Positions 6,317-9,086 of a DNA stretch of 64,000 nt are shown piece by piece. Each line of letters begins with the position of its first letter. Positions within the stretch are counted from its first letter, which is position 1. Source of the stretch: Candidatus Cryptobacteroides sp. (GTDB lineage Bacteria > Bacteroidota > Bacteroidia > Bacteroidales > UBA932); NCBI GenBank assembly GCA_045599225.1, contig JAZRVN010000030.1, positions 42,035 to 106,034 of the forward strand, given 5' to 3'. Under the pieces are notes generated by a model that saw nothing but the letters and a program-made list of their open reading frames with translations, was not told where the DNA came from and searched no databases. The translations under genes were made by a program, and so were the position numbers.

Positions 6317-6324
6317 TATCTTTG
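6317..6324 (+). promoter_or_regulatory. Bacteroidetes-type -7 promoter box (TATCTTTG) for tRNA-Leu
   Basis: Exact TAnnTTTG match 12 nt upstream of tRNA base 1. I found no clear -33 TTTG. Confidence 0.45.
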
Positions 6325-6370
6325 CACTCACAAAAAGCCTTGGTGGTGGAATGGTAGACACGAGGGACTT

Positions 6371-7092
6371 AGACAGCTCTTTGAAATAATTATTTGGAAA
6401 ACTCGATTTTGATACCTACTTTTATATATTATAATATGAAAGCAAAGTATACTATTGAGGACTTAAAGAGTGCAGTCATTGCGAGTAAATCCATAGCAGG
6501 TGTTCTTAGGGAACTTGGCTTACGACCAATTGGTGGCAATTACAGAACAATCCATCGATTAATCTCCAAAAATAATATTGACATTTCGCATTTTACAGGT
6601 CAAGGTTGGAATATTGGTTTAAATTTTAAGCCCAAAAAGGCTATACCAGATTCTGAAATATATATTGAAAATTCAGAATATAGGTGTTCCTGGAGGTTAA
6701 GAGAACGTTATAAAAAAACAACAGGGATCTCTTATTGCGAACATTGTAAGTCAAAGGAATGGATGGGGCAACCTATTCCTCTAGAAATTCACCATAAAAA
6801 CGGCATCAATACTGACAATCGCTTGGAAAACTTACAATTACTGTGTCCTAATTGTCATGCTCTAACAAATAATTATCGAGGAAGGGCACTTTTGAGTGCA
6901 CTCTCTGAAAAGAGGGATGTAGAATGTCGTAAATTCAAGGAAACCTTAACGGGTAATGCTGATGGCAATCTTGAGCCAAGCCTTTAAGAAGGAAGGTGCA
7001 GAGACTAGACACGACACACCTAAAGAATTGTCTATGGTGAAGGAATAGTCCAGACCACAAACAATACCGGTGGCGAAAGCCATAGTGGCAAG
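6371..7092 (+). ncRNA. Group I intron (IC3-like ribozyme) inserted between U34 and A35 of tRNA-Leu(UAA)
   Basis: The 5' exon ends in U and the intron ends in G (7092). Candidate guide sequence TTTGAGT (6891-6897) pairs with ACTT|AGA across the 5' splice site, with a U-G wobble at the junction. A P2-like hairpin is CTCTCT-GAAA-AGAGGG (6901-6916). AAATTCAAGGAAACC (6931-6945), GGCAATCTTGAGCCAAGCC (6964-6982) and AAGGTGCAGAGACTAGAC (6993-7010) match my memory of the Azoarcus tRNA-Ile and Anabaena/plastid trnL intron cores. A GGC-GAAA-GCC hairpin lies near the 3' end. Confidence 0.8.
6436..6987 (+). CDS. Intron-encoded HNH homing endonuclease
   Basis: The HNH/zinc-ribbon motif is CEHCKS..LEIHHKNGINTDNRLENLQLLCPNCHALT. 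I placed the first ATG at 6436; the ORF-track start at 6394 is a TTG. About 33% GC by hand count of four 60 nt lines, against about 50% in the flanks. The gene lies wholly inside the intron. Confidence 0.85.
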   Translation: MKAKYTIEDLKSAVIASKSIAGVLRELGLRPIGGNYRTIHRLISKNNIDISHFTGQGWNIGLNFKPKKAIPDSEIYIENSEYRCSWRLRERYKKTTGISYCEHCKSKEWMGQPIPLEIHHKNGINTDNRLENLQLLCPNCHALTNNYRGRALLSALSEKRDVECRKFKETLTGNADGNLEPSL

Positions 7093-7145
7093 AAAATCCC
7101 TTGGGCAGAAATGTCCGTGTGAGTTCGAGTCTCATCCGAGGCACA

Positions 7146-7177
7146 AGCAGCAATTCTCAGGAGTTGCTGCTTTTTTA
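7146..7177 (+). terminator. Rho-independent terminator after tRNA-Leu
   Basis: AGCAGCAA-ttctcaggag-TTGCTGCT followed by TTTTTTATTT. Confidence 0.75.
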
Positions 7178-7185
7178 TTTCCCTC

Positions 7186-7295: not shown

Positions 7296-8291
7296 TCAGT
7301 GTACCTCCCAATGGCCGCCCTTGTCGGGGCCTATCCTGAAGATAACGCCTTCTGATTTCAATTTTGACAGATGTTTTTCAATTGCCTTTGCGCTGACACC
7401 AAGAGCTTCCGCAAGGGTGGCGGTGGTCATATTGCTGTTTTCTCTCAATAATCTGACAATTTTCTCCCTACTCTTTTCTTTTCCCGGAATAGGTGGCAAT
7501 GTTTCTCCCGTCGATTCAAGATATGCCTGAATATCCTTTTTCAGGTTGCGAATCATTTCATCAAGAATAAACTGGCGGAATATCTCTTTGTTCCCGGCTT
7601 CTCTTGTTTCTATCAGAGCATTAATATATTGCTCCTTATCTTCTTTGAGAATTTTAGATGGAATCAGTCCGAACTCGAACTGAATCATATTCATCAGCAG
7701 CCGGGCCATTCGTCCGTTGCCATCCGCCCACGGGTGAATGGTCACGAGGTCATAATGGGCGTCAAAACTGAGAAGATATTGGTCAATTATAGTTTTTCTC
7801 CCCACTATTTTCCTCGCTTTATTCAGTTCATCGCAGAACTCTTTCAATTTGCCGGGGACCTTACTGAAGCTCATATAAGACTTCCCGCCAATGCCTGCCG
7901 TCACATTCACAAGTCTGATATCACCATTCGCAGATGAAAATTCCCCCAAGGCCGTTTTGTAAACCTGCCCGGTATTCTTCATGGTAATGGAGGAAAGTTC
8001 TTTCAAAAGATTGACAGTGATTTCACTGTGACTTCCGGCATATTCCAGACACCTGTCATAGGCGGCCTTGAGATCAAGATTCATATACTGCTCTATCAGA
8101 GTCCTTCCTCCGGCACTGATACCTTGATCAAACATCAGCTGATTCTCAATTTCGGTAACTGTTGATCCTTCTATGGCAGTAGAATGAGTAATGATGGAAT
8201 ACAGATAGAACTTTTCATAGTCTATCTGTCTGTCGATTCCCAAAGTCCTGTATTGGACAAGCAGCGATTCCAGTTCCTTTTCCTTTGTCAT
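7296..8291 (-). CDS. Fic-domain protein (AMPylase family) with N-terminal inhibitory motif and C-terminal winged-helix HTH
   Basis: Fic motif HPWADGNGRMARLL. The inhibitory (S/T)xxxE(G/N) motif is STAIEG. The C-terminal HTH-like region is NMTTATLAEALGVSAKAIEKHLSKLKSEGVI. A -7 box TACCTTTG lies on the minus strand at 8312-8319. Confidence 0.85.
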   Translation of the reverse strand: MTKEKELESLLVQYRTLGIDRQIDYEKFYLYSIITHSTAIEGSTVTEIENQLMFDQGISAGGRTLIEQYMNLDLKAAYDRCLEYAGSHSEITVNLLKELSSITMKNTGQVYKTALGEFSSANGDIRLVNVTAGIGGKSYMSFSKVPGKLKEFCDELNKARKIVGRKTIIDQYLLSFDAHYDLVTIHPWADGNGRMARLLMNMIQFEFGLIPSKILKEDKEQYINALIETREAGNKEIFRQFILDEMIRNLKKDIQAYLESTGETLPPIPGKEKSREKIVRLLRENSNMTTATLAEALGVSAKAIEKHLSKLKSEGVIFRIGPDKGGHWEVH

Positions 8292-8741: not shown

Positions 8742-9086
8742 ATGAATATAAATAAGTTGATTAAATTGGTAGAAGCTAGCGAACTGAACAAGTCGCAAAT
8801 AGCATCAAGATGCGGAATTTCGCGAACAACATTAGACAATTTTCTAAACGGAGCAGATGTAAAACTGAGTACCGTTGAGGCATTAACAAATGTCTTGGGA
8901 ATTCATATTCACGAATTATATGATGAAAATATCCCATCAGCTAAAGCCATTGCAAATGGTAAACATTTTATTGCAGCCGTAAATAGCGAGGTGAACGGCA
9001 ACAAGGCCCTGGAGGAGAAAGTGCAGTTGTTAGAGCAGTTACTAAACGAGAAAGAACGAACGATCCAAATATTGATGAACAAATGA
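8742..9086 (+). CDS. XRE-family helix-turn-helix regulator with C-terminal coiled coil
   Basis: The HTH is SQIASRCGISRTTLDNFLNGADVKLSTVEAL. A heptad-like tail follows (LEEKVQLLEQLLNEKERTIQIL). About 38% GC. Confidence 0.8.
   Translation: MNINKLIKLVEASELNKSQIASRCGISRTTLDNFLNGADVKLSTVEALTNVLGIHIHELYDENIPSAKAIANGKHFIAAVNSEVNGNKALEEKVQLLEQLLNEKERTIQILMNK

Follow-up and report, generated by a model that had tools for sequence, protein, structure and literature searches.

The window analysed here, a 64-kb stretch (64,000 nucleotides) of a Candidatus Cryptobacteroides assembly, contains the two halves of a tRNA-Leu(UAA) gene, separated by an intron that has a protein-coding gene of its own. Does such a split gene still supply a tRNA, and how did the intron and its gene come to be there? 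The patchy distribution of the trnL(UAA) intron has long been debated as a matter of loss versus transfer. We propose that the locus is, very probably, a working tRNA-Leu(UAA) gene of a rumen or gut Bacteroidales bacterium, in which U34 is separated from A35 by a compact ribozyme of the IC3 type with an acquired homing endonuclease gene. The evidence is comparative, drawn from the sequence of the locus and its relatives. All features of the locus with coordinates below are on the forward (+) strand.

A tRNA-Leu(UAA) gene split in its anticodon loop

The 5ʹ exon (6337..6370, 34 nt) comprises the acceptor 5ʹ strand, the D arm, the 5ʹ strand of the anticodon stem and C32 U33 U34. The 3ʹ exon (7093..7143, 51 nt) starts at A35 A36 and continues through the remaining anticodon arm, a long variable arm, the T arm and the acceptor 3ʹ strand to the discriminator A; the CCA end is not encoded. 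The group I intron between them (6371..7092, 722 nt, A+1 to omega-G7092) interrupts the anticodon loop 3ʹ of its third nucleotide (CUU/AAAA). Its 5ʹ boundary follows U34 (...GGGACTT/AGACAG), its 3ʹ boundary follows G7092 (...GGCAAG/AAAATCC), and the same boundaries are found in 59 related introns. With the exons joined, ARAGORN reports an 85-nt tRNA-Leu(taa) of canonical type II form, in which the variable arm is long. An earlier note on this DNA had given exactly these exons and this tRNA, and the 722-nt removal that it placed between U34 and A35, after a U and ending in G, is confirmed in the sequence. The split gene is missed by ARAGORN in default mode and by the Rfam tRNA model, and no second tRNA-Leu, whether UAA or any other, was found in the 64-kb window.

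Several observations suggest that the exons are maintained as a tRNA gene. The joined exons are identical at 85/85 positions to the uninterrupted gene of two related loci, L262 and L263, intron-less alleles of the kind that the earlier note had proposed to look for in related strains. The 12 nt of exon on each side of the intron are invariant in 57/57 introns; the tRNA stems differ between lineages, with compensating changes. At least 59 distinct sequences contain this split gene, and such recurrence, taken with the covariation described below, is far beyond chance. Upstream, a putative promoter motif, TATCTTTG (6317..6324), lies 12 nt from the tRNA 5ʹ end and matches TAnnTTTG, the Bacteroidetes -7 promoter motif. 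The syntenic intron-less genes in L262 and L263 have the motif at the corresponding upstream position, and it is also present in L261 and L264. Directly 3ʹ of the tRNA is a terminator-like hairpin of the intrinsic type, followed by a T run (7145..7180).

The intron is a compact IC3-like group I ribozyme

The Rfam model Intron_gpI (RF00028), which the earlier note had named as a check, matches positions 6852-7070 over its full length (model positions 1-253; E 8e-11), with a score of 53.7 bits that exceeds the gathering score of 50 by a small margin. We drew a P1-P9 structure by hand, including the P3/P7 pseudoknot, and counted covariation in 57 distinct introns from rumen and gut Bacteroidales. 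In this structure 97.4% of cells are paired, as compared with 32-41% when the partners are slid. Both-sided changes occur at 18 pairs, in 179 cells, and 0/500 shuffles reach the observed values. Examples are UA/CG in P3 (38/16), AU/GC in P5a (28/25), CG/UA in P2 (27/27) and AU/GC in P8a (32/24). P7 is invariant and hence uninformative for covariation. Minimum-energy folding of the core alone was not distinctive (z = -1.6) and gave only some of the expected helices; such folding is unsuited to a pseudoknotted ribozyme, so the fold is judged by covariation. Together, these counts indicate that a conserved P3-P9 core with the P3/P7 pseudoknot is maintained in evolution.

In the manual structure, the 5ʹ strand of P1 (ACUU/AGA, 6367..6373) pairs with the internal guide sequence UUUGAGU (6891-6897). 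This places a U6370-G6894 wobble at the 5ʹ splice site, with U at -1, and the four exon pairs of P1 (ACUU/GAGU, including the U.G) are invariant in 57 sequences. We propose that P1 is extended by pairing of GCUCUU (6376..6381) with AAGGGC (6882-6887), on either side of the ORF insertion; at the same site, a closed hairpin, GAGCUCUU-CGAG-GAAGAGCU, is retained in L178, an intron without the ORF. A perfect 12-nt palindrome, AAATAATTATTT (6384..6395), lies in the leader 5ʹ of the ORF and is kept with small variation in ORF-bearing introns; that it acts as an operator or as an RNA hairpin is speculative.

The ribozyme core (6891..7092), delimited by the Rfam alignment, the manual structure and the covariation counts, begins with the guide sequence. 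It continues with P2 (6899-6919, GAAA loop 6907-6910), P3 (6925-6930/7011-7016), P4 (6934-6939/6970-6975), P5 (6944-6945/6964-6965), P5a (6950-6952/6959-6961), P6 (6976-6977/6995-6996), P6a (6981-6984/6989-6992), P7 (7001, 7003-7007/7046-7051), P8 (7017-7020/7036-7039, with a CCUAAAG...CUAUGG receptor-like motif), P9 (7055-7058/7085-7088) and P9a (7070-7074/7079-7083, GAAA loop 7075-7078). The alignment column of omega-G7092 is invariant among the related introns. By inspection and alignment, the core is compact, without P5abc or P2.1; P2 and P9 are both capped by GAAA loops, and P8 contains a receptor of the CCUAAG/UAUGG type. A compact core, GAAA loops and a P8 receptor make up the feature list of IC3 introns. 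The IC3 ribozyme strings that the earlier note had quoted are all present, and the GAAA-capped hairpins of the IC3-like core that it described are those on P2 and P9. On these features the intron, 6371-7092, is a compact IC3-like group I intron that is predicted to self-splice.

An HNH reading frame that runs into the ribozyme

The P1 loop contains an ORF (6436..6987) with an ATG start and 183 codons plus a stop, for a putative HNH homing endonuclease with predicted cleavage activity. The earlier note had called it an HNH ORF of this length, and profile searches agree: the Pfam families HNH_3 (26.2 bits, cutoff 24.8) and HNH (22.2 bits, cutoff 21.4) match just above their thresholds, and PHROG 10822, "HNH endonuclease", matches residues 2-158 with an E value of 2.6e-41. 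Residues C101, C104, H119, H120, N128, N132, C137, C140 and H141 (CxxC, HH, N, CxxCH) are invariant in 34 homologs, and an AlphaFold2 model has a strand-strand-helix at residues 117-142. Foldseek with this model gave weak matches only, all to HNH nucleases (E > 0.06). A sequence search of solved structures returned chance-level matches only, so that no close relative among solved homing endonucleases can be named, and NCBIfam gave only sub-threshold matches, to the HNH domains of ZorE and IscB. In a protein search, 3131 clusters matched at E <= 0.001, and identity is 72% or more for every one of the best 120 of these 3131; the database label of the intron ORF is "HNH endonuclease" and nothing more. 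The earlier note was right that the ORF is poor in GC, but the value is 35.8% for the ORF-only part rather than ~33%; for comparison, GC is 41-47% in the flanks, 44.6% in the ribozyme and 49.3% in the window as a whole.

The ORF extends beyond the folded protein. Residues 1 to ~150 form the folded protein, and the codons of residues ~151-183 lie in the ribozyme (guide sequence, P2, P3, P4, P5 and P6), with the UAA stop (6985-6987) in the P6 loop. The last ~33 codons are thus ribozyme core, a number that rises to ~55 in read-through variants. AlphaFold2 gives pLDDT <50 for residues 149-183, a prediction of disorder for the tail that the core encodes. Homology to phage relatives ends at residue 150.

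An intact ORF of 183-215 aa is present in 20/20 introns of 722-744 nt. In the protein-only part, dN/dS is ~0.08, with synonymous sites saturated; in the part that overlaps the ribozyme, the synonymous difference is only 0.22, and synonymous change is visibly suppressed there. The low ratio indicates that the HNH protein is under selection. A chance reading frame is ruled out by dN/dS, by the invariant catalytic residues and by the existence of a phage family. At the DNA level the ORFs differ by 23-28%, and this divergence, with saturation, is as compatible with long residence as with frequent transfer.

Empty, ORF-less and ORF-bearing alleles in Bacteroidales

Exon 1 is shared by 120 species representatives; 112 of them lack the intron and seven have it, the ORF being either present or absent. 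The genomes with interrupted alleles include Ca. Cryptobacteroides, Rikenellaceae, Prevotellaceae and Bacteroidales MAGs. The related introns comprise 34 that are ORF-less (211-251 nt), five with ORF remnants (302-528 nt) and 20 that are ORF-bearing (722-744 nt). The named homologs of the flanking HAD protein and of the HNH protein are all from "[Bacteroidales bacterium]", in agreement with the host proposed in the earlier note. The exact sequence of the flanking HAD protein has no database record; its homologs did yield loci, among them L262 (GCA_045641085.1) and L263, where an exact empty site lies beside the same HAD hydrolase (77% amino acid identity). This syntenic intron-less form comes from a different species, not from a sister strain. 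Synteny of the window with other intron-bearing loci was not found beyond the tRNA and the intron.

Three pairs of near-identical loci differ in the presence of the ORF (L154/L239, L142/L196 and L155/L255); their cores are 98.6-100% identical and their flanks 96.6-99.8% identical. Presence/absence polymorphism in near-identical DNA is therefore found for the ORF cassette. For the whole intron, such polymorphism within one species was not found among the related loci. Median core identity between the ORF-bearing and ORF-less sets is 81%, and inside each set it is 80-85%; with between-set identity like that within sets, the ORF-bearing introns are not a separate lineage. Between lineages, intron DNA is only 72-77% identical. 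The suggestion in the earlier note of a mobile, horizontally acquired intron receives indirect support from the predominance of intron-less alleles, the exact syntenic empty site, and the occurrence of ORF-bearing and ORF-less forms in near-identical backgrounds.

Free-standing relatives in phage tRNA arrays

Relatives of the HNH protein were found at 46 viral loci, with 37-59% identity over residues 1-150. They are free-standing genes in phage tRNA arrays. We considered that they might lie inside introns and rejected this, as a group I match was found in 0/20 viral loci scanned. A tRNA-Leu gene lies within 160 nt of the viral HNH gene in 23/31 clusters, and in 13/31 it is tRNA-Leu(UAA). The annotated phages S-CRM01 and Michonne have the same HNH/tRNA-Leu arrangement. 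In two viral loci, L271 and L272, a tRNA-Leu(UAA) gene lies 22 nt downstream of the HNH gene and matches the Bacteroidales insertion-site region over 38 nt. This putative target beside a free-standing homolog would be awkward if that sequence alone were the cleavage site.

Alternative explanations

Could the interrupted gene be a tRNA pseudogene, broken by an insertion, with another gene supplying tRNA-Leu(UAA)? Standard tRNA finders give no call at the locus, and the search for another gene covered the 64-kb window. However, the joined exons match an uninterrupted gene exactly, and the exon bases next to the intron do not vary among 57 introns, although the tRNA stems change, with compensation, from lineage to lineage. 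In addition, the ribozyme fold is maintained by covariation, and the promoter motif and terminator are kept. We consider a pseudogene very improbable. It is more conceivable, but still quite unlikely, that the intron and its ORF are long-resident and non-homing, with the HNH protein either kept for another role, such as that of a maturase that assists ribozyme folding, or slowly decaying. The saturated synonymous sites, the low intron identity between lineages and the physical fusion of the ORF to the ribozyme core are all consistent with long residence. The dN/dS of the protein-only part and the invariant catalytic and zinc-binding residues argue instead for a working nuclease, and the tail encoded by the core, with its predicted disorder, has no counterpart in the phage relatives. 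Furthermore, ORF-less introns are common, which suggests that the ribozyme has no need of the HNH protein.

A closer competitor is that the endonuclease gene moves alone, into ORF-less introns, at a site in or near the P1 loop, and that the intron itself is mostly inherited vertically or lost. The three near-identical locus pairs differ by the ORF cassette alone: within each pair, the final 208 intron nucleotides are the same, and the whole P1 loop is swapped. ORF-less introns outnumber ORF-bearing ones (34 versus 20), and the latter are not a separate lineage, as the core identities show. The same pattern is, however, given by plain deletion of the ORF in the degeneration phase of a homing cycle. 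ORF remnants of 302-528 nt do occur, and L178 resembles a clean deletion, with the P1 extension hairpin left behind. The position of the phage relatives next to uninterrupted tRNA-Leu genes points to exon DNA as the target. On balance we regard independent movement of the endonuclease gene as unlikely, though it deserves serious weight.

A proposed composite mobile intron

We favor a working split gene with an IC3-type ribozyme and an acquired homing endonuclease. The locus would be one transcription unit, from the Bacteroidetes-type promoter to the terminator at 7145-7180. Sequence and conservation show that, in the precursor, the ACUU end of the 5ʹ exon pairs with the guide sequence to form P1 with the U34.G wobble. 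By analogy to group I chemistry, and given the fold shown by covariation, an external guanosine bound in P7 would attack after U34. Omega-G7092 would then replace the guanosine, and the exons would be ligated into the 85-nt tRNA, with a junction reading GGGACUU/AAAAUCCC (GGGACUU/AAAAUCCCUUGG). The 183-aa HNH protein, with its gene in the loop of the extended P1, would be translated from the precursor or from the excised intron. The enzyme would cut or nick an intron-less tRNA-Leu(UAA) gene near the anticodon-loop region, and repair would copy the intron into the cut allele; states expected from such homing are seen in nature. The endonuclease gene most likely derives from the phage lineage of free-standing HNH genes that adjoin tRNA-Leu in tRNA arrays, and would have invaded a pre-existing ORF-less intron.

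We tentatively extend this to the HNH lineage as a whole, whose members may be tRNA-Leu-specific homing endonucleases that shuttle between phage tRNA arrays and the bacterial trnL(UAA) intron; we see this as a real possibility, somewhat short of an even chance. If it is correct, the composite intron arose when a phage gene with a product that cleaves at the insertion site invaded an ORF-less intron, and phages of gut and rumen Bacteroidales are now moving the "ancient" trnL intron between species. In addition, with the ORF fused to the ribozyme core, any one RNA molecule would be either translated or spliced, but not both.

What is the wider significance of the locus? The intron carries its own endonuclease gene, a candidate engine of mobility for the trnL(UAA) intron. 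The empty site and the ORF-less, ORF-bearing, remnant and free-standing phage states form a natural series that could serve to test how mobile introns come together, and the ribozyme core doubles as protein-coding sequence. There is also a practical consequence: standard tRNA finders miss the split gene, and hence many Bacteroidales MAGs will seem to lack tRNA-Leu(UAA).

Comparison with known systems

The earlier note regarded the trnL(UAA) intron as mainly cyanobacterial and plastid, a view that no longer holds. Beggiatoaceae and Thiomargarita are reported to have group I introns in tRNA-Leu-TAA (PMC4853749), and a survey of 5292 tRNA group I introns across bacterial phyla (Williams 2020, bioRxiv 10.1101/2020.01.27.920355) adds that introns longer than ~400 bp may carry genes. 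The survey also gives the nomenclature of tRNA intron sites, such as Leu.3Ug, and Bacteroidetes Leu.3Ug introns may already be counted in it. The intron described here is of a type that these reports show to be known outside cyanobacteria and across phyla. Neither PMC4853749 nor the accessible text of Williams 2020 mentions a Bacteroidales example, an HNH gene of this kind, its placement in P1 or its phage relatives, and our literature searches on group I introns together with Bacteroidetes, Bacteroides or HNH turned up no account of the element.

The trnL intron of cyanobacteria and plastids (Anabaena/Nostoc, Leu.3Ug) is filed as IC3 (PMC2238919). It shares with ours the tRNA, the insertion point (CUU/.../AAAA), the U at -1, omega-G, the compact core, the GAAA-capped P2 and P9, and the P7/J8-7 sequence, and the seed Ncf2.Leu.3Ug has the same ...UUGAG-UGC-[P2]-UGCAGAA-[P3] layout. 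The Bacteroidales intron differs in its host and in having a 183-aa HNH gene in the P1 loop. The classical trnL(UAA) intron is not known to carry an ORF. Pairwise identity is 80% to the cyanobacterial Leu seed and 75-82% to Thr, Arg and Ile seeds, and pairwise identities to ten published seeds (70-83%) give no clear nearest type. The cyanobacterial seed is no closer than those of other tRNA introns, and we therefore do not claim descent from a cyanobacterial intron. The Azoarcus tRNA-Ile(CAU) IC3 intron (seed Aol6.Ile2.5Ug; 81% identity over aligned columns) has similar strings (AAAUUC..GAAACC, GGCAA..GAGCCAAGC, GGUG.AGAGACUAGAC and CACCUAAG...UAUGGUGAAGG.AUAGUCC) and the same layout of GAAA loop and receptor, but it lies in another tRNA, at loop position 5Ug, has no ORF, and has a shorter P9.

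The Synechocystis tRNA-fMet intron with I-Ssp6803I is, like ours, a bacterial group I intron in a tRNA anticodon loop that carries an endonuclease gene; it differs in tRNA and site (fMet.2Ug) and in its cyanobacterial host. I-Ssp6803I is an endonuclease of the PD-(D/E)XK type. According to PMC3984707, which cites Bonocora and Shub 2001, it is a homing endonuclease specific for a tRNA gene. Free-standing endonuclease genes between phage tRNA genes, like the closer viral relatives described here, are represented by SegB, which cleaves tRNA genes of related phages (PMC2330249), and by F-TflIV of BF23. Neither is intronic. SegB belongs to another nuclease family, and F-TflIV shares only the catalytic core, matching residues 101-150 of the HNH protein with 52% identity. 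The accessible literature on endonucleases of the SegB/F-TflIV type makes no mention of a tie between these closer viral relatives and tRNA-Leu genes.

A precedent for the proposed history is the cyanophage psbA/F-CphI case (the Bonocora-Shub route), in which a free-standing endonuclease reportedly targets the insertion site of an intron. The states that such a route requires are all seen here: introns without the ORF, relatives that stand free next to the same putative target gene, and the composite intron.

Results

Joined, the exon halves at 6337-6370 and 7093-7143 make 85 nt that ARAGORN calls as tRNA-Leu(taa) with a long variable arm. The anticodon loop of this tRNA reads C U U|A A A A, which places the 722-nt insert between U34 and A35; the insert is preceded by U and ends in G7092. 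The exon halves, the insertion point and the insert ends are as the earlier note had described them. The joined exons are thus recognized by a tRNA finder, but the split gene is not: default ARAGORN and the Rfam tRNA model missed it, their sole call in the window being a tRNA-Met elsewhere. The proposed group I identity is upheld by the Rfam Intron_gpI model, which matches 6852-7070 with 53.7 bits (gathering score 50). The ORF-only part has a GC content of 35.8%, compared with 44.6% for the ribozyme and 49.3% for the window. The ORF does lie below its surroundings, although not at the ~33% first estimated. We conclude that the observation is real and that its initial interpretation was essentially right.

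The fold of the intron was assessed by projecting a hand-drawn P1-P9 structure of the window onto an alignment of 57 introns from which any ORF cassette had been removed. The proportion of paired cells was 97.4%, versus 32-41% with partners slid by 1-3 columns, and none of 500 shuffles reached the observed pairing values. Changes on both sides were seen at 18 pairs (179 cells). The informative pairs are in P2, P3, P5a, P6a, P8a and P9; P4, P6 and P7 are invariant and hence uninformative either way. Minimum-energy folding of the core by itself was not decisive. P1 is formed by ACUU|AGA and UUUGAGU (6891-6897), with a U34.G6894 wobble, and the initial AAAA of the 3ʹ exon can pair with UUUU (6890-6893) as P10. 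GAAA caps P2 and P9a, and P8 contains a CCUAAAG...CUAUGG motif resembling the 11-nt tetraloop receptor.

The ORF (6436-6987, forward strand) encodes 183 aa. As claimed for it, the product is HNH-like, scoring narrowly above the cutoffs of both Pfam HNH families and matching PHROG 10822, "HNH endonuclease" (E 2.6e-41). In ORF-less introns the 5ʹ splice site and the guide sequence are only 3-20 nt apart; in the window, ~520 nt are inserted there, within the loop of a proposed extended P1. The frame continues through the guide sequence, P2, P3, P4, P5 and P6 to a UAA stop (6985-6987) in the P6 loop; some relatives lack this stop and reach one in J8/7, so that their ORF is 205-207 aa long. Three observations identify the C-terminal tail encoded by the ribozyme core as a by-product of the RNA: homologs in phages align to residues 1-150 only, AlphaFold2 is confident for residues 1-148 with pLDDT < 50 for 149-183, and synonymous difference is 0.22 in the ribozyme overlap while saturated elsewhere in the ORF. 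For the protein-only part dN/dS is ~0.08, and the residues of CxxC, HH, N and CxxCH do not vary among HNH homologs. A perfect palindrome, AAATAATTATTT, occupies 6384-6395, past the 5ʹ splice site and ahead of the ORF; it recurs with one or two changes in every ORF-bearing intron seen and is absent from ORF-less introns.

The HNH protein is very common: 3131 clusters match it at E <= 0.001. Identity is 72% or more for every one of the best 120 of these, and those named are "HNH endonuclease [Bacteroidales bacterium]". Scanning one genome per species with the exon-1 string GGTAGACACGAGGGACTT gave at least 120 loci. Among the 120 listed, 112 run straight into AAAATCCC and are therefore intron-less, and eight are interrupted. 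Among the interrupted loci, the intron bears the ORF in Ca. Cryptobacteroides (L052) and in two Bacteroidales MAGs and lacks it in a Rikenellaceae MAG (L094, 211 nt) and in two Bacteroidales MAGs; that of a Prevotellaceae MAG (L118) is divergent. At L027 (Bacteroidales MAG RGIG3197), exon 1 ends at U34 and unrelated DNA follows, with no exon 2 inside 3 kb and no Rfam match; possible explanations are a chimeric contig, a larger insertion or a tRNA fragment.

Scanning metagenomes for the P7/J8-7 string enlarged the set to at least 59 distinct introns of tRNA-Leu(UAA), all inserted at the same site. Among the 59 listed, 34 are 211-251 nt long, five are 302-528 nt and 20 are 722-744 nt. All 20 of the longest have an intact ORF of 183-215 aa, and the 302-528-nt introns hold remnants: N-terminal fragments in L202 and L167, only the HNH half in L222. 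An activated-sludge contig from a different organism (L140) has a tRNA-Leu(UAA) intron with the same P7/J8-7 string and other exons (...GGTATG|AAAATCCGTCGGGC), indicating that this intron type reaches beyond gut Bacteroidales.

Close homologs of the window's flanking HAD hydrolase gene identify intron-less alleles. L262 (GCA_045641085.1) and L263 have a HAD gene 77% identical to that of the window, then an uninterrupted tRNA-Leu(UAA) in the same arrangement with the same TAnnTTTG motif. This tRNA is identical to the window's joined exons at 85 of 85 positions and is an exact empty site. L260 has the same HAD neighbour and contains the intron, with a 99% identical HNH protein. Moreover, for three introns with the ORF there is an ORF-less counterpart in the same genomic background: L154 and L239 (core identity 100%; flanks 99.8% over 1874 nt), L142 and L196 (100%; 98.2% over 1811 nt), and L155 and L255 (98.6%; 96.6% over 940 nt). 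The two introns of L154/L239, and likewise those of L142/L196, are identical over their final 208 nt and differ in the entire P1 loop. Between the window and other intron-bearing loci, similarity ends at the tRNA boundaries. The empty site and these pairs suggest that the intron is mobile, as the earlier note had proposed.

Two contigs with close HAD homologs (L261, L264) end inside exon 1, a few bases short of the insertion site; the assembly may have broken at these points through the coexistence of alleles with and without the intron. Downstream of the tRNA, the DNA varies between related loci. The window has a gene for a Fic/DOC protein with a winged-helix domain (7296-8291, reverse strand) and then a small ORF (8742-9086, forward strand), L260, a strain related at 99%, has a DDE transposase in this place (L260:6892-8442), and the syntenic, intron-less L262 has, by eye only, an apparent Fic-type gene in opposite orientation. 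The region next to the tRNA may be an insertion hot spot.

The HNH family is also present in 152-211 phage records (tblastn), and a viral contig scan found 46 loci (L266-L311) with 37-59% identity to the HNH protein. None of the 20 viral HNH loci scanned has a group I intron, and nearly all have abundant tRNA genes. After grouping at 90% protein identity, tRNA-Leu lies within 160 nt of the HNH gene in 23 of 31 clusters, tRNA-Leu(UAA) does so in 13 of 31, and Leu accounts for 60 of 141 tRNAs, all counts that phage relatedness inflates. In L271 and L272, tRNA-Leu(UAA) is 22 nt downstream of the HNH gene and matches the Bacteroidales gene across GGTGGAATGGTAGACACGAGGGACTTAAAATCCCTTGG. The HNH gene adjoins tRNA-Leu in the annotated phages S-CRM01 and Michonne, and lies between other tRNAs in LCK69 and Francesca. 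From these sequence comparisons, we infer that an ORF-less intron was probably invaded by a lineage of phage endonucleases that is associated with tRNA-Leu genes.

The phage relatives (L266-L311; NC_015569.1, NC_028247.1, NC_073613.1, PP978770.1) are almost always within tRNA arrays. Some of their HNH genes are 0-8 nt from a neighbouring tRNA or overlap it, and runs of five to seven tRNA-Leu genes occur at L290, L297 and L300-L303.

Other introns were seen, mainly on viral contigs. A group I intron (Rfam, 52.6 bits) splits a viral tRNA-Leu(UAA) at L139:5934-6143, reverse strand (IMG/VR UViG_3300002026_000351). This intron is outside the anticodon loop, at a point between the D arm and the anticodon stem. 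Exon 1 ends ...GGTAGACAT, exon 2 starts AAGAGACTTAAAATCTCT, P1 is GACAU/GUGUC with a U.G wobble, and ARAGORN calls the joined exons as an 85-nt tRNA-Leu. Phage introns are known only in protein genes according to a review (PMC3984707), and a 2020 survey covered anticodon-loop sites only (bioRxiv 10.1101/2020.01.27.920355). L138 (a 53-kb viral contig) and L250 match the "Leu.2Ug" type of that survey (Williams 2020). The P7/J8-7 string also matches apparent group I introns close to the 3ʹ end of tmRNA genes carried by phages, followed by ...TCCACCA, on viral contigs L135, L136 (10373-10760 and 9784-9860), L137 and L168; Rfam recognizes tmRNA in both L136 and L137 and, close by in the former, a twister-P5 ribozyme.

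Discussion

The element is a bacterial tRNA gene with a group I intron bearing a predicted homing endonuclease, a known kind. The intron is abundant in gut and rumen Bacteroidales and exposes an annotation gap for tRNA-Leu(UAA). Its natural series of states is unusually complete, and there is in addition the phage connection. Outside the by-phylum table of Williams, our literature search found no description of a trnL intron in Bacteroidales, of the HNH gene it carries or of the connection between phages and tRNA-Leu.

In cyanobacteria and plastids, the trnL intron is the textbook example of an IC3 intron (PMC2238919), in line with the distribution initially assumed; however, group I introns in tRNA-Leu-TAA have also been reported from Beggiatoaceae and Thiomargarita (PMC4853749). 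Bacteroidetes go unmentioned in a 2014 review of group I introns in bacteria (PMC3984707). Williams surveyed 80,413 bacterial genomes, mapped 5292 tRNA group I introns in them, counted Leu.3Ug as one of four classical types, and noted that introns longer than ~400 bp may carry genes (bioRxiv 10.1101/2020.01.27.920355). The ribozyme core studied here is 70-83% identical to all of ten published seed introns, with no clear nearest type. The HNH protein matches, in its catalytic core, F-TflIV of phage BF23, an HNH enzyme already known from the T5-type tRNA region (PMC2330249).
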